In this document: one piece after another, positions 6,286-18,171 of the stretch | Numbering within the stretch: the first letter of the stretch is position 1 | How the letters are laid out: each line of letters begins with the position of its first letter | DNA from: Candidatus Bathyarchaeota archaeon | Lineage (GTDB): Archaea; Thermoproteota; Bathyarchaeia; Bathyarchaeales; Bathycorpusculaceae | Length of the DNA stretch: 64,000 nt | Reading direction: 5' to 3' | NCBI GenBank assembly: GCA_963707955.1 | Contig: OY970176.1 | Coordinates: 1,152,001 to 1,216,000 of the forward strand | Program-made: the position numbers and the translations under genes | The notes under the pieces: model-generated | What the model saw: only the letters and a program-made list of their open reading frames with translations | Databases searched by the model: none | What the model was told of the DNA's origin: nothing

Positions 6286-7152
6286 ATGGATCGACGCCCC
6301 AGGTTCGGTCCAGCTGGGGTTCCCCCATTGTTCAAGTTTATGAAGGCTACTTTGTCGGACATTCCGAGACTTCTACGCGAAGAGGGACTTGACGCTTTCG
6401 AGTATGAAGCCGTTCAATGGGGAAAGAAGCCCCAAATGAGGAAAGAAGAGGCTCAGAAACTAGAGCTGGAAGCTAAGCGAAACGATGTTTGGCTCAGTCT
6501 CCACGGTTCTTACTTCATCAACTTCTGCGGCGAAAGAGCAATCGTTGAAGCAAGCAAACAACGCTTGATAGCGTGTGCAACGGCCGCTGAATGGATGAGT
6601 GCTCATGTTGTGGTTTTCCATCCCGGTGTCTACGGCAAGAAATCACCTATGGAAGCTCTCAAAACGTGCTCAGAAGCCTTGGAAGACGTTGTTGAAAATA
6701 TGCGGAGCTTGGGGATTAGGAACGTTAGAATAGGACCAGAAACGATGGGCAGGACTTATCAGCTGGGAAGCCTCGACGAAACCTTGAATCTGTGCGAGAC
6801 GGTTGAACGCACGCAGCTGGTTGTTGATTGGTCCCATCTTCACGCAAGAGACAGAGGGCGTTTCAGAACCGCCGAGGATTTCCGCAAGGTTGCGGGGCGC
6901 ATTGAGAACCAACTTGGAACTGACGCTCTCAAGAACTTGCACTGTCACTTCACAAAGATCGAGTTCACTGACAAGGGTGAAAGACGCCATCACACGCTGC
7001 AGGAAGCACTTTATGGACCAGACTTCCGATTGCTTGCAAGGGTCATCATTGAATTCGAGTTGAAACCAGTCATCATAAGCGAAAGTCCAATCCTGGATCT
7101 GGACGCAATGAAGATGCGTGACATACTTCAAGAAGAGTTGGACAAGAGTTAA
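6286..7152 (+). CDS. nfo: Endonuclease IV (AP endonuclease 2, TIM barrel)
   Basis: RFGPAG, SLHGSYFIN, VFHPG, PETMG, DWSHLHAR, HCHF, GERRH metal-ligand motifs. Confidence 0.9.
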   Translation: MDRRPRFGPAGVPPLFKFMKATLSDIPRLLREEGLDAFEYEAVQWGKKPQMRKEEAQKLELEAKRNDVWLSLHGSYFINFCGERAIVEASKQRLIACATAAEWMSAHVVVFHPGVYGKKSPMEALKTCSEALEDVVENMRSLGIRNVRIGPETMGRTYQLGSLDETLNLCETVERTQLVVDWSHLHARDRGRFRTAEDFRKVAGRIENQLGTDALKNLHCHFTKIEFTDKGERRHHTLQEALYGPDFRLLARVIIEFELKPVIISESPILDLDAMKMRDILQEELDKS

Positions 7153-7207
7153 GAAAGTGCGATACGTTTTTTACGCTGGCCTGTGGTGCTGTTCAAGGGG
7201 ACATGTT

Positions 7208-8455
7208 TTGGTTCGATTGAGAGGATTTCAGAAACTAGTCTCAGTAGAAACCGCGTTGCAAACGTTTCTCGGAACGTTGCGGATCAAACCGAAAGAAACG
7301 TCTAGTCCCTTGCACTTAGCTCTAAATCGTGTCCTAGCCGAACAAATAATCGCAAGGACGGATTTGCCGAGGACTAACAGGTCAGCAGTTGATGGATACG
7401 CTGTAAACGCCGACAGCACTGCACAAGCAACACAGCAAAGACCAGAAACTCTCAAGATCGTCTGCAAGGACGTGATAAACGAGAACCAAGCAAAGCAGGT
7501 GTGGACTGGCAACTCGGTAGCCAGTCGCGCAAACGCCGTCGTGATGCTGGAAAATGTTAAACTGGATGGAGACAAGATCGCTGTGTTGAGCCCTGTTACT
7601 CGATGGGAAAACGTTTCGAAAAAGGGTGAAGACGTGCGAAAAGGGCAGGTCGTTGCCGAAGCAGGAACTCGTTTGAAGCCTCAGCATCTGGGACTGATAG
7701 CTGCTTTCGGCGATGCCGAAGTAAAGGTCTTCCGAAGGCCCAGGATCGCCATTTTGGCAACTGGAAATGAGCTCGCTGAGTTGGGTGGTAAACTGCGAAG
7801 AGAACAGGTATTTGACACCAACAGAACTGTTCTATGTGCATTATGCAGTGAGCTAGGAGCACAGACTCTAGATTTGGGCATTGCAAGGGATGATGTGGAC
7901 GAAATCTCGGAAAAGCTGAGGCTAGGCCTTATGAAAGCTGATGGTGTAATTAGTTCTGGCGGAACTAGTGTCGGGGGGCTAGATCTCGTTCCAGAAACTG
8001 TCAACAAGGTTGGAAAGCCAGGCGTCATTGTTCATGGCGTAGCAATGCGTCCAGGCATGCCAACGGCGCTGGCAGTCGTGAAAGACAAGCCCATCATCGT
8101 ACTCCCAGGCAACCCTGTTGCTGCTATGCTGAGCTTTGAGGTTTTTGGCAGACCGTTAGTGAGCAGGATGCTTGGGCTTAAACGGGCAGAGGCGAGACCC
8201 ATGTTGAGGGCAAGAATGACTAGGAGAATCGCCATCACTCTAGGAAGGAAGAATTTCGTTCGTGTCCGCGTTCTTCAAAAGGATGATGATTTCTTCGCTG
8301 AACCTATCAGCGCTCGCGGTTCAAGTCTGATTTCCACTATGACAAGAGCTAACGGTTATGTGGTCGTGCCAGAAAACGTAGAAGGCTTAGAAGAAGGAGA
8401 CATTGTCTCGGTGCACATGTTTGACGATTTAGAGGCCATTAGAGATTATGTTTAG
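7208..8455 (+). CDS. moeA: Molybdopterin molybdotransferase MoeA
   Basis: RSAVDGYA, ATGNEL, SGGTSVG, PGNPVA; likely TTG start at 7208 (track ORF from 7118). Confidence 0.92.
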   Translation: MVRLRGFQKLVSVETALQTFLGTLRIKPKETSSPLHLALNRVLAEQIIARTDLPRTNRSAVDGYAVNADSTAQATQQRPETLKIVCKDVINENQAKQVWTGNSVASRANAVVMLENVKLDGDKIAVLSPVTRWENVSKKGEDVRKGQVVAEAGTRLKPQHLGLIAAFGDAEVKVFRRPRIAILATGNELAELGGKLRREQVFDTNRTVLCALCSELGAQTLDLGIARDDVDEISEKLRLGLMKADGVISSGGTSVGGLDLVPETVNKVGKPGVIVHGVAMRPGMPTALAVVKDKPIIVLPGNPVAAMLSFEVFGRPLVSRMLGLKRAEARPMLRARMTRRIAITLGRKNFVRVRVLQKDDDFFAEPISARGSSLISTMTRANGYVVVPENVEGLEEGDIVSVHMFDDLEAIRDYV

Positions 8456-9689
8456 GAAACTGTTGACCTTTGAAGAGGCAAAAAAAGTCATTCTAGAACG
8501 ATGCAGACCTACGCCTTTGGGCATTGAAGAGATTTCGCTTCTGGAGGCTAGCAGCCGTGTTCTAGCACAAGACGTAACGGCCAGCAGAGACATTCCACCA
8601 TTTGATCGGTCAACAGTTGACGGATACGCTGTGAGGGCGCAGGACACGTTTGGTGCCGAGGAAAACAGACCGATTACGCTGGTGGCCCACGGGGCAGTGC
8701 GCGTTGGCGAAACTCCTAAGATAGTTGTCAGAAAGAAAGAAGCAGCAGAAATAGTCACAGGAGCACCTATTCCCGAAGGTGCAGACGCTGTTGTCATGGT
8801 TGAGCAGACTGAAAGAAAGGCTGACCGTGTTCGTGTTTTCAGCGCAGTTGCAAGGCATGAGAACATAATGAAGGCAGGACAGGACATCGGAAAAGGCGAG
8901 ATTGTCCTTAAATCTGGCAAACTGCTGGGTTCGAGAGAAGTCGGTGTTCTAGCTGCCTTGGGCATGGCGAAAGTCAAGGTCTACGTGGTTCCTCGAGTAG
9001 CAGTTTTTTCGACAGGAGCTGAGGTAACCGAGCCGGGCAGAAGTCTGCTCAATGGGAAGATTTATGACATCAACGCGTACAGTCTGAGCGCAGCTGTGCT
9101 CGAAAGCGGGGGGAAGCCTATTTTTCTCGGCGTTTTCCCTGATGACCTCGTCAAGCTTCAGAAAGCGTTGAGGCATGCTTTGGCCTCCGCCGACGTTGTG
9201 GTAACCTCTGGCGGTGTCTCTGTGGGCCCAAAAGATGTTATGCCAAAAGCGTTGGCTTCTCTCGGAAAACCTGGCACGATCATATCTGGAATCGCTATCA
9301 AGCCTGGAAAACCCACGACGATAGGGCTGATCTGCGATAAACCAGTGTTTTCACTTCCTGGACATCCTACATCTGCATTGCTGGTTTTCCATCTACTTGC
9401 CCGCCCGATAATACAGGCAATGGGAGGGAGAAGAGCAGAAGAAGACTTAGAAGTGAAGGCTATCACAATGGCAAGGATGTTCCCGGCAAAGGGAAGAAGA
9501 ACATTTGTCATGGTGGCCCTGAAGCGCGATAAGCTAAACCGGACTGTGGCCGAGCCTATTCTAGCAGGGGATTCTGGAGCGATAACGACCCTCACGAGAG
9601 CAGATGGTTATGTTGAGATACCTGAAAACGTGCAATTCGTGGATGCAGACGAGGAAGTCGCGGTGCGACTTTTTCGAAAAATGCCGTAA
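8448..9689 (+). CDS. moeA: Molybdopterin molybdotransferase MoeA, second paralog
   Basis: PPFDRSTVDGYAV, TGAPIPEGADAVVMVE, TSGGVSVG, KPGKPT, LPGHP. Confidence 0.94.
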   Translation: MFRKLLTFEEAKKVILERCRPTPLGIEEISLLEASSRVLAQDVTASRDIPPFDRSTVDGYAVRAQDTFGAEENRPITLVAHGAVRVGETPKIVVRKKEAAEIVTGAPIPEGADAVVMVEQTERKADRVRVFSAVARHENIMKAGQDIGKGEIVLKSGKLLGSREVGVLAALGMAKVKVYVVPRVAVFSTGAEVTEPGRSLLNGKIYDINAYSLSAAVLESGGKPIFLGVFPDDLVKLQKALRHALASADVVVTSGGVSVGPKDVMPKALASLGKPGTIISGIAIKPGKPTTIGLICDKPVFSLPGHPTSALLVFHLLARPIIQAMGGRRAEEDLEVKAITMARMFPAKGRRTFVMVALKRDKLNRTVAEPILAGDSGAITTLTRADGYVEIPENVQFVDADEEVAVRLFRKMP

Positions 9690-9752
9690 ACGACAAAGAG
9701 AATTTGAGAAGACGAATGTTGGTGCGATTACATAAAACGAGAAAAGATGTCC

Positions 9753-10085
9753 TCATTCTTCAAGAACTTTTCTCTTGTTTGCGGCGTATGCCGTGAAGAC
9801 CCATGTTAGAATGAGATAGAAAATCATTCCGACGCTGAGAAGATAATTGCTTGTCAAAACACTGTAAATGACATAGAATGCGAAAGTTGTGCTAGCAAAG
9901 AACAAGATTATGATAAACCAGAATGACCAAGCTCTCTTCCTAAACATGCCATAGGCAGCAATCAGGCTGAGTATGCCGAGGATCCCAACGTGCGGCGGGA
10001 AGCCACTCAATGGCAAAAGGGCAATGAATGCTATTCCGACGATTGCGTAGAAAGCGGATGTTGCGAAAATTCCCCAGTCTCTCAA
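9753..10085 (-). CDS. Small 4-TM hypothetical membrane protein
   Basis: 110-aa hydrophobic ORF with upstream TTTATTAA box on the minus strand (~10150-10157). Confidence 0.7.
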   Translation of the reverse strand: MRDWGIFATSAFYAIVGIAFIALLPLSGFPPHVGILGILSLIAAYGMFRKRAWSFWFIIILFFASTTFAFYVIYSVLTSNYLLSVGMIFYLILTWVFTAYAANKRKVLEE

Positions 10086-10121
10086 TCCTCAGCCTCGACC
10101 CGAGTGACATTTTCCATACGC

Positions 10122-10175
10122 CTTTAACCCTAATGCATTGACGGTAACATTAATAAATCTAATGTTCTACTTTCC
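10122..10175. repeat. Intergenic direct repeat A, copy 1
   Basis: TAATAAATCTAATGTTCTACTTTCC (10151-10175) is identical to 10802-10826; the 29 nt to its left match 10773-10801 at 21/29. Confidence 0.9.
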
Positions 10176-10263
10176 TTTCTAATGACACTCCTGTAAACCA
10201 TAGCGTGAAAAAGAAAGCCCGCCCTAAAAAATAGGAAGTTCTTTTTTCATTACCTCGCACGCG

Positions 10264-10656
10264 CTATTTCTTGGCAGCCTTGCTAAGGTATGCGCCTATT
10301 TGTTCTGTCTCTTTAGCAAAGGTCTCGTACGGATAGTGTTGACCATGGATCATAGCACTCCATCTAGAAGTGTAGCTGGCCAGAAATGCAATTTCTGCAA
10401 GTTCTTCCTTCGTGGCACCGTACATTTTGGCTGCGCTTATGTGGAAGAGCGCGCAGTATGGACACCTTATGTTTGCTGCAACTGCTAATCCCATCAGCTC
10501 CCTGTACTTTGCGGGTATCTTACTCTCCCCCAAGGTGTACTTTTTGAAAAGAGGCCAGTCATGTATAAGGACATCCTTTGGTAGAGCCTCCATGAAGCCA
10601 GGAACAAGACCGAGGCTTTTCTTAATGTCATTCAGCGTATCTTCATATTCTCCCAT
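10264..10656 (-). CDS. Carboxymuconolactone decarboxylase/AhpD-like protein
   Basis: KYRELMGLAVAANIRCPYCALFH..GAT.EE; SD GGAGGTGA before ATG 10656. Confidence 0.88.
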   Translation of the reverse strand: MGEYEDTLNDIKKSLGLVPGFMEALPKDVLIHDWPLFKKYTLGESKIPAKYRELMGLAVAANIRCPYCALFHISAAKMYGATKEELAEIAFLASYTSRWSAMIHGQHYPYETFAKETEQIGAYLSKAAKK

Positions 10657-10772
10657 TGATATCACCTCCGATCTTGAGTGATTTACAACTGATAACTCGC
10701 TTTTAGCCACCTATCGAACAGGAAGTATAATACTGAATTGCATATAGCACGGCCGGATTGCGCGCGCTATAG

Positions 10773-10826
10773 CGTTAACCTTAATGCTTTTTCAGTACCA
10801 CTAATAAATCTAATGTTCTACTTTCC
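10773..10826. repeat. Intergenic direct repeat A, copy 2
   Basis: See copy 1; preceded by GCGCGCGC at 10760-10767. Confidence 0.9.
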
Positions 10827-10855
10827 CGTTTAAACTCACACTCACGGATAGCACT

Positions 10856-10876
10856 TCTAGAAAAGGAAGAGCGCGC
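10856..10876. repeat. Intergenic direct repeat B, copy 1
   Basis: TCTAGAAAAGGAAGAGCGCGC, identical to 13557-13577. Confidence 0.88.
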
Positions 10877-10893
10877 GCTCTTCTAGCCAATCA

Positions 10894-11346
10894 TCACTTT
10901 TTCGTCGTGTATTTCTCTGACTCTTCCTGAAGTTCTTTCGTCCAATCCTTAGTAGGCATCGGACTGTTGATTTCGATAAGGTTTCCATCAGGGTCTCTCA
11001 GGTAAACCACTCGCATACCCCAATCTGGACGTTCTTGAAGCTCAGTAATGAATCCAATATTCCTTTCTTTTAACCTTTTGATGGTAGTGTCAAGGTCATC
11101 CACGGTGAATATCAATGCTATTCTGTCTTGGGCAACTGCACTCTCAGGAAGGTTGGACGTGCCTAAGGCTTTTGCTTGGGCTTCTCTCTTAAAAAGTGAA
11201 AGTTGGGCTCCTCCTTCTGAAACGTAGCTTGCATATGCACCCTTTTCTTCTCCCCACGTTACCCTCAAGCCCATGGCGTCTCTGTAGAAGCGGAAGCAAG
11301 CCTCAAAATCGACAACTAACAGTCTCACATGATCCAAATGTAACAT
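10894..11346 (-). CDS. VOC/glyoxalase family protein
   Basis: HVRLLVVDF..FYRD.MG, WG.R..YLRDPDGNLIEI. Confidence 0.9.
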   Translation of the reverse strand: MLHLDHVRLLVVDFEACFRFYRDAMGLRVTWGEEKGAYASYVSEGGAQLSLFKREAQAKALGTSNLPESAVAQDRIALIFTVDDLDTTIKRLKERNIGFITELQERPDWGMRVVYLRDPDGNLIEINSPMPTKDWTKELQEESEKYTTKK

Positions 11347-11439
11347 AGCTTAACTCCTCGGAAAAAACTTGTTTTTCACACATATAATTATTCCTCTAAC
11401 GAAGAAGAATTTTGTCAAAAAGTGGTTGTGGTTGGGGTA

Positions 11440-11740
11440 AAGTTTCTGAACATCATCAACATTTCTAGCGATGGCTGAATGATAAATATCAGACTCTTCA
11501 AACTCCACCAATTGTGTATAGATTAATGTGTTGGCAATGTTCTTATGTCCCAATAACGTCATTACATATAGAATGTCTTTAGTCCTATGATTTTGTCGCT
11601 TTCCAATGGCGAAATGTATGGAAATGGATCTTCAATAATCTTGGATTCCCAAGCTTCTTTGCAGAGCGTTTTCTCTGAGGGTTGAAATTGTTAAACATTG
11701 TTTGCCATGAATTGGCTCCAAAGACCTTATCGCTATCTCT
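11440..11740 (-). pseudogene. Tyrosine integrase/recombinase C-terminal relic, frameshifted and truncated at both ends
   Basis: Minus strand reads ..RKRSAKKLGNPRLLKIHFHTFRHWKAT(fs)HRTKDILYVMTLLGHKNIANTLIYTQL.., containing the HxxR, LLGH and catalytic Tyr motifs. Confidence 0.85.
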
Positions 11741-12087
11741 GCGCGCGCGCTAAAAGCCAAGAAGATCTATGAAGCAACCGACAAGCCGGCCACAAACTCA
11801 TACAAGAGGGACGAATATCCAAGCGACTCCTCAGAATCATCAGTCAACCACTCATTTCGAGACAGAAACGGCTGCGTTCCTGAGCTTTTGGAAAACGTGC
11901 GCTAACCAACCACTAGTTGACACGCAAGATTGAAATGCCCAAAATGGCCGCTTCCGGTTGTCATGAGGTCGGCGCACGCGCTCTTTTTGACGTGGGCATA
12001 TTTGGATCCAAATATCCATGGTACGTTGAAACCGAGGAGGGGCAGGTTCCTCAGCCTAGCAAAGACTTCTCAACCCACCAAAATCTA

Positions 12088-12112
12088 GGAGCCGGGGATG
12101 GGAGTTGAATCC
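12088..12112 (-). mobile_element. tRNA 3'-end fragment (T-loop and acceptor strand, tRNA-Cys-like), probable att-site relic
   Basis: GGATTCAACTCCCATCCCCGGCTCC on the minus strand; no matching 5' acceptor strand GCCGGGG upstream; about 350 bp from the integrase relic on the same strand. Confidence 0.6.
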
Positions 12113-12247
12113 TAGGCTAATGGAGACATCACCCGCCCACTCTGCCGTTTCTCTCTGCATCAATGTATTCTGGCCACTTTGCACTAACATGTGCGACCCA
12201 CCGTCAAACCAGCCCGGTTTAACTGGCATCGTCCGACTATGGACCCG

Positions 12248-12289
12248 ATAAATCTAATGTTCCATTCCAAACACTTAACTTCACACTCA
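12248..12289. repeat. Intergenic repeat A, degenerate copy 3
   Basis: ATAAATCTAATGTTC (12248-12262) plus downstream TCACACTCA, which is also present after copy 2. Confidence 0.7.
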
Positions 12290-12336
12290 AATTGAACTCA
12301 AAGCGTGCGCTTTCATCTTCACCGTCAATACGGGCG

Positions 12337-13317
12337 CTATTGAAATTCTGCCACCATCGCATCCATTACAAGAACCTCTCTGAATCCTAAATTCTTCACT
12401 GTTTCTATGAGTTCTTGCCTTGCTGTAGGAGCCGCTAGGCGAATTCTTCTTACGCCGCCTTCGGCAATTTCGTTGTTTGCTGCTTCTATGAGTAGTTTCT
12501 CGATGCCGAGCGACCTGTCTTCAGAGTTTACCTGTATAGAACCGATACGGCCTGCTTCTTTGGCCGTGGTGTACGATGCCTCAGCATACCCAACTATCCT
12601 GCTACCCAGCACAGCAACCAGCTTCTTCTGAGTCGCGAAACCGAATATCCGCTGTAGGAATGGTGTTTTCAAGTCTTTCTTCGTGAAATCGAAGATCCTT
12701 AGGCTGTTCGGGTCTTCTGAGGCTTCTATTAGGTTGTAGACCTCGTCCAAGTCATCTTTCTGGAATTCTCTGATTTTGACTCCGGAGGCGTTTTCTGGCG
12801 CACGCATGGAATTTGTCTCTCTGACGAAATAGGCCAAATGCTCAAATGTTTTGAACCCCAGCTTGACGTAGACGCTTTTTGCAGAGTCATTCGTAGAATC
12901 TACGTGAAGGACTGCTCTCGCCTTTTTTCTTCTTCGAATGTAGTTGAGGGCATTTGTCATTAGTGTGGTCGCGATTCCTTTTCTTCTGTAGTCTGGGTGC
13001 ACCATGACTGATGATATGTAGCCGGATTTTCCTCGGTTATTGATGATTGTTGTGCCGACAATTTTGCCGTCTGCTTCTGCAACGAGAAACTTTGCTGGTT
13101 CTTTTCCACTGAGCCGCAGCAGCCCTAGGATGAGCGTGCCAGTTCTTCCGAATGCGCGATTGACCATGTCAGCTACATGATCTGGATCAAAGCCTGAAAT
13201 CTCGAACTCCTTGGCAAAACACATTGTAAAAAGACCCAGCAAATCACTCAAATCAGACTTGCGGAGGTCTCTAATCAGAATGTGGCCATTCGTTTTGTCG
13301 AGTTCTGTGTTTTCCAT
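12337..13317 (-). CDS. Tandem GNAT acetyltransferase
   Basis: FLVAEADGKIVG, VHPDYRRKGIAT acetyl-CoA motif, N..A..VY.KLGF, second degenerate GNAT domain; start taken at ATG 13317. Confidence 0.88.
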   Translation of the reverse strand: MENTELDKTNGHILIRDLRKSDLSDLLGLFTMCFAKEFEISGFDPDHVADMVNRAFGRTGTLILGLLRLSGKEPAKFLVAEADGKIVGTTIINNRGKSGYISSVMVHPDYRRKGIATTLMTNALNYIRRRKKARAVLHVDSTNDSAKSVYVKLGFKTFEHLAYFVRETNSMRAPENASGVKIREFQKDDLDEVYNLIEASEDPNSLRIFDFTKKDLKTPFLQRIFGFATQKKLVAVLGSRIVGYAEASYTTAKEAGRIGSIQVNSEDRSLGIEKLLIEAANNEIAEGGVRRIRLAAPTARQELIETVKNLGFREVLVMDAMVAEFQ

Positions 13318-13556
13318 ATCCGAAGCTTCCAATATCTGTATCCTCGATTTCGATGTATTTGAAATTTTTCCACAGTTATTATCATGGCGCATGAGGAAAA
13401 TCCGCGCGCATTCACTTTCTTAGACACAGTAATCAACATAGCCCAAACGACTGGTCACTACCCTAGGTGTTCTGTGCAAAGTGATCAATCCAAGATTCGC
13501 AGAGCGAGGAGCAATTTTGAACGAATGGGCAAGAGATAACAACTCAAAGCGCATGC

Positions 13557-13577
13557 TCTAGAAAAGGAAGAGCGCGC
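13557..13577. repeat. Intergenic direct repeat B, copy 2
   Basis: Identical to 10856-10876; the adjacent AACTCAAAGCG (13541-13551) also occurs at 12295-12305. Confidence 0.88.
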
Positions 13578-13619
13578 ATTACGCTTATTAGTGAGCAATT
13601 TTGAGAGGTCTAGCACACG

Positions 13620-14375
13620 GTGCACTCAAGGAGCTTAACCGCAATGGGAACAGCTGAAGAAGAAAACGTTGACGAAGTCAATTACAAGCATGAAATCAAA
13701 GTCACCAAGAATGGCCCATACCTTGTTTCTGGCAAACTCCCCATATCCGAACAAATAATCATCGTCAACAAGGATAGGGTTCCGGTCGAATGGCGTTCGG
13801 GCAAGAAATATCCTTTGCAGGAAAAATGCGGTCTTTGCCGATGTGGAGAATCAAAAAACAGACCTTTCTGTGATGGAACACATACAAAAATCGGTTTTGA
13901 TGGTACTGAGCGGGCCAGCAGTGAACCCTACCTGAAACAGGCAAAAATCATACAGGGCCCAACGCTTAAGCTAACCGACGTTGTGGATCTTTGTGCCTCT
14001 GCGCGTTTCTGTCATAGAGCAGGCGAAATTTGGAACCTTATTCCAAAATCAGATGACATGGACGCTAAACGTGCGGCAATCGAAGAAGCAGGAGACTGCC
14101 CGTCAGGTCGCCTTGTGATTTGGAACAAGAAAACAGGGGAGGCAATTGAACCAAAATTGGAAAAATCAATCGGGTTAATTGAAGACCCTCAGATGGAGTG
14201 CAGTGGTCCGATTTGGGTACGAGGAGGCATCCCGATTAGGTCTGTAGATGGAAAAATCTATGAAGTTCGCAATCGCGTTACTCTCTGTCGCTGCGGCAAG
14301 TCCTCCATCAAACCATTTTGTGATAGCAGTCACTTCCCTGAGCATCGCTACGAAGAAATGATGTCTCGTAAGTAA
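13620..14375 (+). CDS. CDGSH iron-sulfur domain protein (two CDGSH domains flanking a ferredoxin-like domain)
   Basis: LCRCGESKNRPFCDGTH and LCRCGKSSIKPFCDSSH; central CASARFC...CPSGRL. Real start probably the internal ATG (MGTAEE). Confidence 0.9.
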   Translation: MHSRSLTAMGTAEEENVDEVNYKHEIKVTKNGPYLVSGKLPISEQIIIVNKDRVPVEWRSGKKYPLQEKCGLCRCGESKNRPFCDGTHTKIGFDGTERASSEPYLKQAKIIQGPTLKLTDVVDLCASARFCHRAGEIWNLIPKSDDMDAKRAAIEEAGDCPSGRLVIWNKKTGEAIEPKLEKSIGLIEDPQMECSGPIWVRGGIPIRSVDGKIYEVRNRVTLCRCGKSSIKPFCDSSHFPEHRYEEMMSRK

Positions 14376-14487
14376 AATCAACATGATCCTATATTTTGTA
14401 GCGCGCAGTGAGAAAAACAGAGAGCCACCTACTGTCATATTTTTCGCACCAAGTATTCGAGGTAATGCTAGTAAGCTTCAACATTGA

Positions 14488-14919
14488 TTACATTAGTCCT
14501 AGCTGTTTCATCATTCCGACTACGTCGTAGAAAAGGCGTTCCTCTTTGATTTCGTTGTTTTTCCAAGTGGCAACGGTGCAGAACTCGAGCTTAGCCGTTT
14601 TGTGCGTAGGTTGAACGATTTTTCCATCTGGCCCTTTCATTGGTCCTATCATGGTTGCTGTCCAGTCAGCGACAGAACAAGTGTAGTTGCCATCGCCGAA
14701 AAGAATTTTGTAAGGATTATTAACCAGCTTATTATCAAATGTTTTGAAGAATTCGACAGATTCCTTGTAATGTGCTTCTCGACCTCTCGTCGGTTCCGGC
14801 TGACCAGGCCAGTAAACTGCGACGTTTGCTGCGTGGCGTTTCTTGAATGTCTCCCAATCCTGATTGTTCCAAGCATCATCCAAAGTCATCATCAATTTCA
14901 TGTTTTCCTTCACACCCAT
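14488..14919 (-). CDS. SnoaL-like/ester cyclase (NTF2-fold) protein
   Basis: DDAWNNQDW, WPGQPEPTRGR, QPTHK, FCTVATW..I.EE.LFYD; SD GAGGTGA upstream. Confidence 0.85.
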   Translation of the reverse strand: MGVKENMKLMMTLDDAWNNQDWETFKKRHAANVAVYWPGQPEPTRGREAHYKESVEFFKTFDNKLVNNPYKILFGDGNYTCSVADWTATMIGPMKGPDGKIVQPTHKTAKLEFCTVATWKNNEIKEERLFYDVVGMMKQLGLM

Positions 14920-15007
14920 CACAATCACCTCAACAGTCCGAAGTCATTGCTAGGATAATAAAATTGCGAAAGCTGCTAAGGAAAGCGCGCCAAAAAATGA
15001 GAAAAAT

Positions 15008-15346
15008 CTACGGATTCTTTGTGAGTTCTGATAGTTGTTTTTTGGTTAACCCAACCCCAGGCTCGGCATCAAGCCTCTTGTGCACCTTTCCTTTTTTGAA
15101 AAGAAGCACAGTGGGGTAGTACTCAATCGCGTATTCCTCACACAAATCTGGTCTTTCATCAACTATGACGCGCATGCACTCTTGCGGATTGCCTCTGGCG
15201 TACTCTTCAAATACTGGTAGGAACCTTTGGGAAAATGGGCACCAAGTAGTGTAGAAGAGGACAAAAGCCCTGTCCTTGTTTTCTATTTCTCTCCCTAGAC
15301 TGCTACTTCTGGAGACTTCTATTTTACGCTTTTCAGCTTTGCTCAT
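15008..15346 (-). CDS. Thioredoxin-fold protein with CxxS active site
   Basis: VLFYTTWCPFS, cis-Pro motif YYPTVLLFKKG. Confidence 0.85.
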   Translation of the reverse strand: MSKAEKRKIEVSRSSSLGREIENKDRAFVLFYTTWCPFSQRFLPVFEEYARGNPQECMRVIVDERPDLCEEYAIEYYPTVLLFKKGKVHKRLDAEPGVGLTKKQLSELTKNP

Positions 15347-15692
15347 TCATCTTTCACCCCTCTTTTATATCGCGTCTTAGCCTGTATACCAGCAACCATT
15401 AAAGTTTTTCGCGTTTTGAAAGCACGCATGCTAAAATACAATCTTGGGTTCATGCAGCAACCTGCCCAGCGCGCGCTATCCCAGTTGGACCGCGTCTTGA
15501 TCAATGTTTACTTCCGATTAAGCCCGCGTATGATTTCTTTTCTAGGTAATCGTAATACCTCATAATGTTCTGGCGTTAACATAAATGCATTCAATGTTGA
15601 CGGTTTGGCAGCCTTGCGGAATTTTTAATATTAGGTGGCGGCCTACAAGTGGTAAGTACAGAAGGAAATGTCTAGCAAGCGGATGAAGACAG

Positions 15693-16592
15693 ATGAGCTA
15701 TCGTGAGGTTTTTGTTTCGCCTTCAAACATCTTTAGCGGTTTTCAAAAACCATTCGGCAAAGCAGACTATGCAATACTGGGAGTGCCGTTTGACGTTACG
15801 AGTACATACCGCACTGGAGCCAGGTTTGGACCCATCGCAATTCGGCAAGCGTCGCTTAACATAGAAACCTACAGTTTTCGCACGGGCGTAGATGTAGAAG
15901 ACCTGAGTCTCCACGATCTGGGTGATTTGCATGTGTCTTCTGACACAGCGAAAACCTTGGAAATGCTCGAGCTTGTCATTAGGGACATCCTGAAAACGGG
16001 GAAGGTTCCTGTAACGATTGGCGGGGAACACACCATAACTTTTGGCATAGCAAAAGGCCTTGCAAAAATGGCTTCCACAACAGCAATAGTAAGCTTCGAC
16101 GCCCACCTTGACATGCGTAACGAGTTCTTAGGACTAAAAATGTCGCACACAACCTTCATGCGCAGAATAAATGAAGAAGTGAGACCCGCAAAAATCGTCG
16201 AGGTCGGCACACGGGCAGTCTGCAGAGAAGAGCTAAGGTACGCAAGAAAGGCAGGAATAGAGTTTTTGACGACGCAACAGATCAGAAAAGAAGGAACCAA
16301 ACGCACAATAAAACAGCTGGAGGAAACGCTGGCGAACCACAAGCACATCTACCTATCGGTCGACATGGACATACTTGACCCGGCTTTCGTGCCTGCCGTA
16401 CAGAACCCAGAGGCTGACGGTTTAGAAATGCACTCTCTGCTTGACATTCTGGCAGGCGTATGTGATAAGCGTGTAGTCGGCTTTGATGTCCTAGAGATAG
16501 CGCCTGACTACGATCGAGGAGTCTCAGCGATCCAGACAGCAAAAGTCATTTTCGAAATGCTTTGCCAAATAGAAAAGTCAAGGACAGCCTAG
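15693..16592 (+). CDS. speB: Agmatinase
   Basis: GARFGP, GGEHTIT, FDAHLD, SVDMDILDPAF ureohydrolase motifs. Confidence 0.93.
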   Translation: MSYREVFVSPSNIFSGFQKPFGKADYAILGVPFDVTSTYRTGARFGPIAIRQASLNIETYSFRTGVDVEDLSLHDLGDLHVSSDTAKTLEMLELVIRDILKTGKVPVTIGGEHTITFGIAKGLAKMASTTAIVSFDAHLDMRNEFLGLKMSHTTFMRRINEEVRPAKIVEVGTRAVCREELRYARKAGIEFLTTQQIRKEGTKRTIKQLEETLANHKHIYLSVDMDILDPAFVPAVQNPEADGLEMHSLLDILAGVCDKRVVGFDVLEIAPDYDRGVSAIQTAKVIFEMLCQIEKSRTA

Positions 16593-16797
16593 TCGCAAAT
16601 CAAAGAAGTCAAAGAGTGCCTCGACGAGAAGTCGGAGGATACGAAAGGAGACCTATGCCAAGAAGGATTACCCTCAAGAACTATTCGACAGAATACTTGA
16701 ATATGAGCTTGCTTTTGTTTAAGAAGCCCGATGCCCCGACATTAGCAGAACGCTTCTGGGAAGGAACACGCAAGCTAAGCCTTTTTCAATGAGTTCT

Positions 16798-18171
16798 TCA
16801 ATCCTTGCTTTTCACAAGCTTCGCTATGAACAGACCGCTGCACTGATGAATGTGCGGATACAGTCTCTGGCACTTGTCAAGTCCTCTTAAGCCTCCTAAG
16901 CCTATTCTCGGCAGTATTTCGGTCAGCGAAAACTCAGGATGACATTTCAGAAACCTTTCAATGAGCATCTCATTTTCTTCAACTGTTATGCTGAATGTGG
17001 AATAGACCAATGCGCCCTCAGGCCTGACGTATTGCGAGCAGTTGTCCAACATCTCCCATTGAATTTGAGCCATTCTGTCCACGGAACTTGGCGTCAGCCT
17101 CCATTTGAACGAGGGCAGTCTACCAAAGATGCCTGTTGCTGTGCACGGTGGGTCCAACACCACCAGGTCTGCTTCTACGTCGAAAGGCAATGGGCTGCGA
17201 GCATCAGCGATGATTGGCTCGGCAATCTTCACGCCCATGCGCTTCACCTCGCTCTTCCAAGAGACCATTCTGCGCCTAGAATAGTCCACAGAAAGGATAC
17301 GGCCATCGTTTTGCATCAGCTGCCCCAAGTATGTCGTCTTTCCTCCGGGAGCGGAACAGACGTCCAAGACGGTCATACTTGGAGCTGGATTTGCCGCTTC
17401 AGCTGCAAAAGAGCTTGCTTTGTCCTGGATGTAAACAAGGCCTTCTTTGAAGCAGGAGGTTTCTGTTATGGGTTGTCTTGCATTCTTGACCTCGTACGCG
17501 AACATTAAATCTTTAACTTTATGAGCTTCAACTCCGTCTTCAGCGAACTTCTTCAGAATTCCATCTTGTTCAGAATTAAGCGTGTTTAACCTTACGTAAG
17601 TTGGCATGGGCGATCTGTTCGATTCCAGCATCGCTATGGCGTCTCTTCTACCAAAAAGTCTGAAACAGTATTCGACAAACCATGTCTGATGAAAAGTGCA
17701 CAGTGCGACTCGAGCTTCATCATTTTTCTGCTCTAAGACCACCTCAGGTCTTTGCGTTAGCAGCATGCCTAGAAAAGGCTCGATGGATCGCAAGGTTTTC
17801 CATCCTAGAACGGAGCGTGCCAGTTTGACTATGTTTTCAGCCTCTTCAACGTCAATTTCAGACCAGTGCTTCGCTATTCTCGTTTGATACACGTAAAGCC
17901 TCAGGAAAGCTTGAACGCCAAGGTTGAATTGACCTAGGTCTGCAGGCTTAATAGCGTTGTTTACAAAAGCATCTATGAAGTTCTGTCTCCGAACAGTTTC
18001 GTACACAAGCAAGCGAGCAAGTCGGACAGCATCTGGATCTCGCATTCTCAGCTGGTTAACGGTCCTCGCCAAAGCTGAAGGTTCACTCAGCCTTCGCATT
18101 TGCATCCAGCTGAGAGTCTCAATCGCAACCGCCCAAGCTTCCCTGAGCAAAGTGTCCACACAGTCGGACAT
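16798..18171 (-). CDS. RsmB/Fmu/NOP2-family RNA m5C methyltransferase with NusB-like N-terminus; catalytic motif VI Cys replaced by Phe
   Basis: QDKASS, LDVCSAPGGKT, LDPPCT, LVYSTFS (canonical TCS), EENE. Confidence 0.88.
   Translation of the reverse strand: MSDCVDTLLREAWAVAIETLSWMQMRRLSEPSALARTVNQLRMRDPDAVRLARLLVYETVRRQNFIDAFVNNAIKPADLGQFNLGVQAFLRLYVYQTRIAKHWSEIDVEEAENIVKLARSVLGWKTLRSIEPFLGMLLTQRPEVVLEQKNDEARVALCTFHQTWFVEYCFRLFGRRDAIAMLESNRSPMPTYVRLNTLNSEQDGILKKFAEDGVEAHKVKDLMFAYEVKNARQPITETSCFKEGLVYIQDKASSFAAEAANPAPSMTVLDVCSAPGGKTTYLGQLMQNDGRILSVDYSRRRMVSWKSEVKRMGVKIAEPIIADARSPLPFDVEADLVVLDPPCTATGIFGRLPSFKWRLTPSSVDRMAQIQWEMLDNCSQYVRPEGALVYSTFSITVEENEMLIERFLKCHPEFSLTEILPRIGLGGLRGLDKCQRLYPHIHQCSGLFIAKLVKSKD

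Follow-up and report, generated by a model that had tools for sequence, protein, structure and literature searches.

The subject of this work is the interval between moeA2 and speB in the genome of Candidatus Bathyarchaeota archaeon (GenBank assembly GCA_963707955.1), an uncultured archaeon of sediments, where small stand-alone genes are interspersed with shared repeats and with short runs of alternating G and C. The interval lies in a 64,000-nt stretch of contig OY970176.1 (positions 1,152,001 to 1,216,000), hereafter the window, and positions without a prefix are those of the window. The window's own genome (G000) is one contig (C1) of 2.35 Mb with 47.9% G+C, and the genomes nearest to it are G001 (95% identity), G010 (93%), and G007 (90%). 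It should be noted that such genus relatives are not independent samples.

An initial annotation, made from the letters of the sequence alone, had described a cassette-like array with genes for CMD, VOC, GNAT, CDGSH, SnoaL, and thioredoxin proteins between MoeA and speB, and Pfam searches bear out this gene list (Table 1). The open reading frame (ORF) of the 110-aa membrane protein has no Pfam match. Seven of the eight genes and relics of the array lie on the minus strand, the CDGSH gene being the only one on the plus strand. The left flank is highly conserved, with moeA2 90–95% identical in G001, G007, and G010 and 61–69% identical in other genera. The two tandem moeA paralogues (window 7118–9689), a pair kept in nearly all loci fetched, are about 38% identical and overlap by 8 nt.

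Table 1. Genes, promoter modules, and captured or decayed pieces in and around the moeA2–speB interval (window positions).
Feature	Position	Strand	Remarks
First moeA paralogue	7118–8455	+	Pfam MoeA; adjoins moeA2
moeA2, conserved left flank	8448–9689	+	Pfam MoeA_N/MoCF_biosynth/MoeA_C
110-aa membrane-protein gene, last of left flank	9753–10085	-	next after moeA2 in 18/18 loci fetched with MoeA2
Promoter module 1, including repeat A copy 1	10121–10221	-	ends in degenerate GC box GCCCGCCC at 10214–10221
CMD block	10225–10768	-	gene 10264–10710 (Pfam CMD); GC run 10760–10767 at end
Promoter module 2: repeat A copy 2 and repeat B copy 1	10772–10883	-	
VOC/glyoxalase gene	10894–11346	-	Pfam Glyoxalase/VOC
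Tyrosine recombinase C-terminal relic, frameshifted	11350–11749	-	GC run 11741–11750 at upstream end
tRNA-Cys 3'-end copy and flank	11977–12112	-	90.6% identity to C1:2200219–2200357
Promoter module 3, left part (repeat A copy 3, from 15-nt core outwards)	12216–12305	-	11-mer 12295–12305 at end
GNAT block inside module 3	12306–13540	-	gene 12337–13392, double GNAT (Pfam)
Promoter module 3, right part (repeat B copy 2)	13541–13577		GC run 13572–13577
CDGSH iron-sulfur protein gene	13620–14375	+	Pfam CDGSH x2 with Fer4_19
SnoaL block	14400–14990	-	gene 14488–14928 (Pfam); GC runs 14401–14406 and 14985–14990 as bounds
Thioredoxin gene	15008–15346	-	Pfam
GC run GCGCGCGC	15469–15476		right end of variable DNA, at methyltransferase truncation point
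Truncated methyltransferase, first 9 codons (LIKTRSNWD)	15478–15504	-	
speB, arginase family, conserved right flank	15693–16592	+	Pfam

The interval between the membrane-protein gene and speB is an insertion hotspot with variable cargo. Two observations define it as such: flanks that are nearly adjacent in outgroups, and content that differs among seven genomes of the genus (G000, G001, G004, G007, G008, G009, and G010), with DinB and regulators among the cargo. In other genera the two genes are divergent and the gap between them is about 165 nt (L042), 281 nt (L043), or 372 nt (L037), with inserts of 0.8–2 kb in L044, L040, and L039, and the order moeA–speB–rsmB is kept in G012, G013, G016, G017, and G018. 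Within the window's genus the gap reaches 5.6 kb in G000, about 7 kb in G004, and about 14.4 kb in G007. The initial annotation had predicted variable cargo between moeA and speB in relatives and had named fixed gene content there as the outcome that would speak against it; the content is not fixed, and the prediction holds.

Homology of the left flank to G001, G007, and G010 ends at 10175–10181, and that of the right flank begins at 15471–15476. Between these borders G007 keeps only 11999–12287, 13557–14589, and 14980–15406, and its other cargo consists of hypothetical proteins, SprT-like and GOLD-domain proteins, GNATs, a helix-turn-helix protein, and a block of core genes that in G000 is placed at C1:1679–1683 kb. 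In G010 the flank is followed by about 470 nt of other DNA and then by the GNAT gene leading directly to thioredoxin, the 3' side of the GNAT being joined via GCGCGCGC to other DNA. The cargo of G004, G008, and G009 includes a response regulator, saccharopine dehydrogenase, HxlR, a permease, and DUF6326, and further GNATs, SDRs, an AAA ATPase, VOC, and an Rce1-like protein. The VOC gene of G000 is absent from the interval of G007, G001, and G010; CDGSH is found in G007 and G009 and not in the G010 interval. A 29-kb inversion in G001 has one end inside the slot.

Some blocks have histories of their own. In G009 the CDGSH and SnoaL block (13569–15016), located on the same contig as its moeA, is 90.4% identical to that of G000 versus 68–69% for the flanks, and the same genome carries a 578-nt block of 92% identity that in G000 lies at C1:789770. 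The CMD block is found with 89% identity at a different locus of G007 (L022 4763–5306), where both of its ends abut GC-rich boxes and where it keeps 58 nt of its own upstream DNA. Related strains were represented by Logan public contigs from one study, which also holds the window sequence; such contigs show that a form is present and not how frequent it is. In one of them (run X4) 14399 is connected to 15006 by 25 other letters, which indicates a strain without SnoaL, and another (run X3) diverges as a loose end exactly at 10225. A back-joint from 11518 to 10793 in run X4, with GCGCGCGCG between, has a depth of 2 and is too weak to be used as evidence of a circle.

Several further observations were made in the intervals of the relatives. 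The speB gene of G004 (L021 3134–4059) is read as two ORFs of 118 and 172 aa and is possibly frameshifted. The hotspot of G009 contains a tandem duplication (L020 5883–6711 and 7177–8005; period 1294 nt) of an SDR gene and its downstream promoter module. The second end of the inversion in G001 (C7, L015–L017, compared with G000 C1:1126163–1167476) lies beside a tRNA-like 3' end, and at this place G000 has a 7-kb insert rich in GC runs (C1:1126164–1133103), flanked by the direct repeat CCCCATCCCCCGCACC.

The feature that recurs at the joints of the array is the alternating GC run. The 5.6-kb array contains nine such runs of at least 6 nt (the genome as a whole has 0.49 per kb), and eight of them are in spacers, at 10760, 10871, 11741, 13403, 13572, 14401, 14985, and 15469, so that nearly every gene of the array stands between two runs. 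This recurring border has the form of a short A(GC)3–5T palindrome; in module 2 the run at 10871–10878 lies within an 18-nt perfect palindrome (10866–10883). We counted 17 block ends in the comparisons with relatives, and seven of these lie no more than 5 nt from a perfect run in at least one genome (10768; 12328, with the run in G010; 13569; 14399; 14980; 14986; and 15471–15476). At the right border, a methyltransferase gene is intact in G007 (215 aa) and has 89 aa left in G001, and in G000 and G010 nine codons are followed by a GC run; the intact gene of G007 has no run at this place.

The same association was observed across the genome. GCGCGC occurs 1453 times in G000 versus about 441 expected from base composition, with 72% of the copies in the intergenic 18% of the genome (crude gene calls), and five other GC-only hexamer palindromes show no enrichment. 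There are 1151 GC runs in total, none longer than 11 nt (510 of 6 nt, 186 of 7 nt, 267 of 8 nt, 130 of 9 nt, 56 of 10 nt, and 2 of 11 nt), and the sharp stop at 10–11 nt suggests a length limit in whatever makes or tolerates them. No consensus around the runs was found beyond A before and T after, and the flanks are without strand skew.

For a comparison with G000 we used 455 kb of G001 and 390 kb of G007 and took the ends of homology blocks at indels or rearrangements of at least 50 nt. About 30% of the 455 kb of G001 does not align to G000, though the aligned parts are about 95% identical. In G001, 22 of the 152 block ends (14.5%) lie no more than 3 nt from a G000 run versus 2.2% of random intergenic places, and when ends were randomised within their own intergenic region, 19 were observed versus 3.7 expected (105 ends). 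For G007 the values are 15 of 140 block ends, again with 2.2% for random intergenic places, and 12 observed versus 3.1 expected (100 ends), a 4–5-fold excess over the two comparisons. Runs are denser in unaligned than in aligned intergenic DNA, by 5.7 times in the G001 comparison and 3.6 times in the G007 comparison, and even inside aligned blocks only 61% of them are kept in the other genome (about 95% and 91% identity), which suggests turnover of the runs rather than conservation.

Clean indels between G000 and G001 number 27, and a GC run marks the joint in about 12 of them. Inserts bordered by GC runs contain genes of ordinary kinds (a pst operon, an LPG-synthase C domain, a MEDS regulator, a GNAT, and hypothetical proteins) and no transposase. 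Among the remaining indels are elements bearing 17-nt repeats of tRNA ends, and also transposons that have inverted ends and 9-bp duplications. Two insertions of the latter kind, in G000 C1:2007252–2008764 (1.5 kb) and G001 C2:118447–125309 (6.9 kb), have terminal inverted repeats (beginning GGTACTGTTAA and GATACTGTTAAC) and 9-bp target duplications and belong to one active-looking family.

Polarised cases show that at least some of the runs are new. G000 and G007 have in common a 302-nt segment where G001 has exactly AGCGCGCGCT, and in G000 no run is found at either end of the segment; as with the methyltransferase, the intact allele is without a run at the break points. Of six deletions polarised with G007, three (302, 4101, and 1025 nt) have clear GC filler and one (668 nt) has weak filler. 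Where G001 and G007 have undergone two overlapping independent deletions, each contains GC-rich filler.

The distribution of the runs follows the genus. The 10-mer AGCGCGCGCT is present in 7–114 copies in 11 of 11 genus genomes (0–4 for a reversed-pattern control), and 28 of the 30 genomes from outside the genus have at most one copy, the others being G036 with 9 and G031 with 5. Near-complete genus genomes with GC runs measure 2.2–2.4 Mb, and most near-complete sister-genus genomes 1.3–2.0 Mb. According to a survey (PMC4060949), suppression of alternating G–C patterns is the general rule in prokaryotes. The literature searched contained no account of GC-run junctions in archaea, and the text of PMC11697101 on genomic islands of Bathyarchaeia, supplements aside, does not contain the words repeat, mobile, end joining, or palindrom-.

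The repeats named in the initial annotation are present in the array for the most part as described. Repeat A aligns over 59 nt between 10124–10182 and 10775–10833 with 83% identity, including a 25-nt identical core (at 10151 and 10802), and a partial copy at 12248 shares with these two an exact 15-nt core (at 10153, 10804, and 12248). A profile built from 18 copies in several genomes and searched against the 2.35-Mb genome gave four significant copies, three of them here (E 2e-14, 7e-13, and 3e-8) and the fourth at C1:1686337–1686367 (E 5e-7), the next match having E 4.2. The partial copy reported at about 15563–15591 is not significant by this profile (E 15) and is dropped. Four genomic copies also mean that repeat A is not scattered upstream of many core genes, the finding that would have made it an ordinary operator. 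Repeat B (21 nt) is exact at 10856–10876 and 13557–13577, as reported, and is found nowhere else in the genome even with three mismatches. The 11-mer AACTCAAAGCG, confirmed at 12295 and 13541, has two other genomic places; it is unremarkable as a word and remarkable by its position.

On the minus strand, copy 1 of repeat A contains the TATA-like TTTATTA that the initial annotation had pointed out; it can be read directly between AACATTA and TAATGTT, about 60 nt upstream of the membrane-protein gene. This copy is conserved upstream of that gene in every member of the genus and is recognisable in other genera (G016, G018, L037, L040, L042–L044, and L046), whose membrane proteins are only 36–57% identical. 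On this sequence conservation, copy 1 is the native promoter or operator of the membrane-protein gene. In the compact, ancestral layout with a gap of a few hundred nucleotides, the speB promoter follows within about 20–60 nt, and the slot can therefore be described as the gap between two back-to-back promoters.

In an alignment of the copies the promoter module measures about 105 nt; it extends from TTAACC, includes the core, and finishes with a GC run, and the native copies of G001 and G004 also finish with one. Judging from this alignment, the extra A copies are duplicates of the module, and repeat B is its far end. The interval holds two extra module copies in G000, two in G007, three in G009, and one in G008, and several copies of the module have a GC run on either side, namely G008_b, G009_b, and, in G000, copy 2 and the fourth copy. 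A good repeat A copy precedes the thioredoxin gene in G007 (L013 14002). The third module is uninterrupted in G007, with A, linker, and B followed by CDGSH; in G000 it is split by the 1235-nt GNAT block, with the 11-mer AACTCAAAGCG as a direct repeat on both sides. About 3.4 kb separate the fourth G000 copy from genes that in G007 are neighbours of the slot, and the copy probably left the slot together with them. It points (L031 7262–8106 = G000 C1:1686261–1687105) into an ORF-free stretch of 860 nt that contains two long GC runs and a low-complexity tract strongly rich in GT.

With this reading of A and B, their proposed role as recombination sites is not sustained: copy 1 belongs to the native promoter, and the others are duplicated modules. 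The expectation that block boundaries would fall at A and B is met in part, as some borders are there; the recurrent border is instead the 6–10-nt GC run, which B merely contains and which marks junctions throughout the genome and the genus and is not peculiar to this locus. The further proposal, of a promoter renewed for the next gene by every inserted unit, is superfluous for the CMD block at least, which has its own 58 nt of upstream DNA at the G007 locus.

In the middle of the array the integrase relic noted earlier was confirmed as C-terminal pieces of a tyrosine recombinase in two frames of the minus strand, 11585–11749 (with IHFHTFRHWKAT) and 11350–11631 (with LLGHKNIANTLIYTQ), encoding the HxxR and LGH...Y parts. 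The relic is 56% identical over 39 aa to the PF00589 gene at C1:297 kb and has a weak match to a PHROG integrase family (E 4e-4) and no Pfam match. Beside it, 11977–12112 reproduces the last 24 nt of tRNA-Cys and about 115 nt of its downstream flank, the real gene being at C1:2200169, 1 Mb away. No tRNA genes were found in the window, and no second att-like copy flanks the island. The relic and the tRNA-Cys fragment are best read together as a decayed integrative-element end of about 0.9 kb, and the relic as one of the captured or decayed pieces and not as a demonstrated engine of the array.

Part of this fragment (window 11997–12042) is a 46-nt repeat of about 11 genomic copies containing the perfect palindrome ATATTTGGATCCAAATAT. 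The other copies are at C1: 94555, 559500, 616904, 874928, 1277148, 1343307, 1374367, 1469040, 1882661, and 2200310; the repeat stands 70–110 nt downstream of tRNA-Cys and tRNA-Asn, and elsewhere beside tRNA 3'-end-like sequences. It may be the conserved arm of an integrative-element family or a tRNA-flank signal. At the position of the relic G007 has a different, 328-aa ORF (P0001; L013:11148–12134, minus strand) with no homologue in G000 and no relation to the relic. As a recombinase it was not accepted: an R..HxxR..Y-like spacing was seen by eye only and is unconfirmed, the searches gave no family match apart from a weak SAM-like hint (E 0.039), PHROGs yielded nothing, and among solved structures none was relevant. 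ORF57 (12056–12229), tried as the N-terminal piece of a split SSV-type integrase, matched no Pfam or PHROG family.

Integrons are recognised by an IntI integrase and/or clustered attC sites (Ghaly et al. 2022, PMC9668308). The integron-integrase model TIGR02249 scored at best 29.5 bits against the whole genome, the cut-off being 265, and none of the nine PF00589 genes of the genome lies within the array. No attC-like R''/R' pairs of the sequence form RYYYAAC...GTTRRRY, 54–144 nt long, occur in 9690–15720 (shuffles gave a mean of 1.1), in line with the earlier remark that no attC structure was visible, and there are no Rfam matches in 9000–17000. An integron was rejected for want of IntI, attC pairs, and Rfam matches. 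What had been called a site-specific hotspot, possibly of a non-integron capture system, is thus indeed a hotspot and not an integron, while the part concerning site-specific recombination at A and B is not supported.

Taken together, the data favour, with a probability of roughly 0.55 in our estimate, a permissive slot in which, within this one genus, end joining that writes GC filler, rather than a site-specific cassette recombinase, has inserted, removed, and rearranged DNA. The material joined there would comprise segments of one to a few genes, the decayed remains of an integrative element, and the ~105-nt module in several copies, with the GC palindrome at many of the joints as filler written onto broken ends. 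Since a GC tail is self-complementary, any two ends could pair before ligation, which would probably proceed through the Ku and LigD-type end-joining genes of the genus and some further factor. In a deletion one run would replace the lost segment, and a captured fragment would gain a run on each side; nearby DNA, such as the promoter module, could be copied in as further filler. The slot would keep growing because existing GC runs are also sites of later insertions. Repeats A and B would then be by-products, copies of the native promoter region including its GC run, and the 11-mer a duplication made at the insertion of the GNAT block.

More tentatively, and with somewhat less than even odds, the process may belong to the genus as a whole, in that an alternating GC tail of up to about 10 nt is put on DNA ends and gene-sized pieces are deleted, captured, and shuffled genome-wide without an integrase or attachment site. 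The same process may be behind the larger genomes of the genus.

Candidate enzymes for the joining are present. G000 has a PrimPol–Ku–ligase/phosphoesterase–DUF72 operon at C1:957–961 kb, and Ku is found in 8 of 11 genus genomes (the three without are 65–89% complete) and in 2 of 30 others. Archaeal nonhomologous end joining (NHEJ) of the Ku/LigD type is described in PMC4797286. As expected of NHEJ filler, genes for Ku and for a LigD-type ligase, a polymerase, and a phosphoesterase are present, and the unrearranged allele does not contain the letters found at the joint in the methyltransferase truncation and in three of the six polarised deletions, that of 302 nt included. The operon can be no more than a necessary component, as the two Ku genomes outside the genus have 1 and 0 copies of the 10-mer. 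A polymerase of the terminal deoxynucleotidyl transferase (TdT)/PolX type was rejected as the writer, its palm domain matching in 0 of 11 genus genomes. A BssHII-like restriction–modification system as the source of GCGCGC was also rejected, G000 having no PF00145 (of the methylases, the C5 type only was checked).

A number of points weigh against the end-joining explanation. Ten of the 17 block ends are not at a perfect run: one (10225) abuts the degenerate box, one (the right end in the X4 variant) is ambiguous, and eight are without a run. The left border at 10175–10181, one of these eight, falls inside the promoter module, 33 nt from the degenerate box, and the preferential recopying of repeat A modules is left unexplained. 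Two of the six polarised deletions (525 and 1012 nt) have no GC filler, and two polarised insertions entered a run that already existed, so that runs are also targets and the causal direction is mixed. One of these, of 532 nt, entered a run present in G000, G007, and G010, which was lost at the insertion; the other, of 1750 nt, entered a run present in G001 and G007, which was duplicated as GCGCGCT on both sides. The enzymes and the runs do not coincide outside the genus, where G016 and G040 have the operon or Ku with 1 and 0 copies of the 10-mer, and G036 and G031 have their 9 and 5 copies with no Ku match. As to the measurements, the genes used for the genome-wide counts are the longest ORFs of at least 90 aa, which are crude calls, and BLAST block ends are accurate to a few nucleotides. 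The polarisation takes G007 as the outgroup and takes presence and absence alleles not to have been swapped by homologous recombination. The G001 and G007 comparisons are not independent of each other, since events on the G000 lineage are common to both.

The two insertions into existing runs lead directly to another interpretation, that the runs are pre-existing fragile or targeted sites (Z-DNA, a cruciform, or the substrate of a GCGCGC-specific nuclease) where breaks occur, and that nothing writes them. The GCGCGCT copies flanking the 1750-nt insert look like the product of a staggered cut, and an array three to four times denser in runs than the genome would be expected if runs attract events. 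But the break points are without a run in the intact alleles (302-nt segment and methyltransferase), the C5 methylase expected of a BssHII-like system is missing from G000, and the origin of about 1150 runs in one genus only would stay unexplained. We consider this interpretation unlikely as a replacement for the end-joining explanation, with which it can coexist. Less probable still is that repeat A, with B, is the operator and promoter of a small stress or redox regulon (membrane protein, CMD, thioredoxin, and CDGSH), the GC runs being functional intergenic signals carried along and the interval varying only by ordinary gain and loss of genes, with exchange through homologous recombination in its flanks as in the minimal mobile elements of Neisseria. 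The inverted repeat around the TATA box, the conservation of copy 1 across genera in front of proteins only 36–57% identical, and the highly conserved flanks agree with this, as do the A-type copies preceding CMD here, thioredoxin in G007, and small ORFs in G008 and G009, and an inverted A-like word (I5) upstream of CDGSH. However, conservation across taxa holds for copy 1 only, and repeat A does not stand upstream of many unlinked genes: of four genomic copies three are here, and the fourth faces the ORF-free 860 nt. At its other locus the CMD block has upstream DNA of its own, the runs are conserved no better than roughly neutral sequence (61% kept), one run lies inside the former coding sequence of the methyltransferase, and flank recombination fails to explain blocks found at different loci in different genomes.

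The remaining interpretations rely on a recombinase. A dedicated site-specific system, integron-like or with a tyrosine recombinase acting on the A core, would insert circular cassettes and duplicate its site. Exact 15-nt cores in the same orientation do separate some units in G000, G007, G008, and G009, the left-flank homology to three relatives stops inside A, seven of eight genes and relics share one orientation, and a recombinase relic, with a different 328-aa ORF at the same position in G007, lies in the array. Against this, A does not delimit most units (VOC, GNAT, CDGSH, SnoaL, and thioredoxin), the extra A copies are short modules with GC runs as their own borders, the ORF of G007 is unconfirmed as a recombinase, and the searches for an integron integrase (29.5 versus 265 bits), for PF00589 genes in the array (0 of 9), and for attC pairs (0) were negative; such a system is very improbable. 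Our lowest credence goes to the whole island being the decayed remnant of one or more integrative elements targeting tRNA-Cys. The tRNA-Cys 3'-end copy with its flank beside the relic, the activity in the genus of elements at tRNA genes with 17-nt direct repeats, and the G001 inversion ending in the slot and beside a tRNA-like 3' end are what such an element would explain, but it accounts at most for 11350–12230. There is one att-like fragment with no second flanking copy and no tRNA gene in the window, the recombinase gene is not intact (a C-terminal part in two frames), an intact element with two att copies was seen in 0 of 7 genus intervals examined, and most blocks have separate histories and borders.

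Integrases, integrons, or homologous exchange between flanks are the usual explanations of accessory-gene hotspots; here a cassette-like array whose cargo is of the integron type seems to have been put together by end joining that leaves a GC signature. If this is true, each GC run marks a past break, and gene capture can be read from sequence in archaea abundant in sediment and peat; the writer of alternating GC would represent a new enzyme activity. In a lineage that only metagenomes have revealed, the signature would also serve as a practical marker of genes recently gained, lost, or transferred.

Compared with known systems, the array resembles integron arrays, those of archaea included, and clusters of attC sites lacking integron integrases (CALINs) in its small stand-alone accessory genes (GNAT, VOC, SnoaL, and DinB-type), mostly in one orientation, and in cargo that varies between close relatives and is shared between species. 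It differs from them in having no IntI, attC sequence signature, or attI, in borders that are 6–10-nt alternating GC runs without an extended consensus, in at least one block with its own upstream DNA, and in a junction mark spread genome-wide. In archaea, integrative elements that target tRNA genes (with SSV- and pNOB8-type integrases) leave attL/attR remnants, and the tRNA 3'-end fragment beside a tyrosine-recombinase relic resembles these; unlike such remnants, it is a single fragment 1 Mb from tRNA-Cys, it includes 115 nt of downstream flank, and the recombinase is broken.

The minimal mobile elements of Neisseria are differing cassettes between conserved flanks across strains, with no mobility gene in the cargo. 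Like these and other chromosomal hotspots, the slot has conserved flanks and variable cargo without a mobility gene, but its pieces are also found at unrelated loci of other genomes, its joints contain GC filler, and copies of the flanking promoter are interspersed. The joints themselves are closest to end-joining filler. The bacterial LigD polymerase makes non-templated additions at end-joining junctions, and TdT adds GC-rich N nucleotides in V(D)J joining; here too, short letters absent from both parents stand exactly at deletion and insertion joints. Unlike the additions of LigD and TdT, the filler in this genus is strictly alternating GC, palindromic, capped at 10–11 nt, and present at about 1150 places, confined to one genus. 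To our knowledge, no enzyme is known to write alternating GC tracts.

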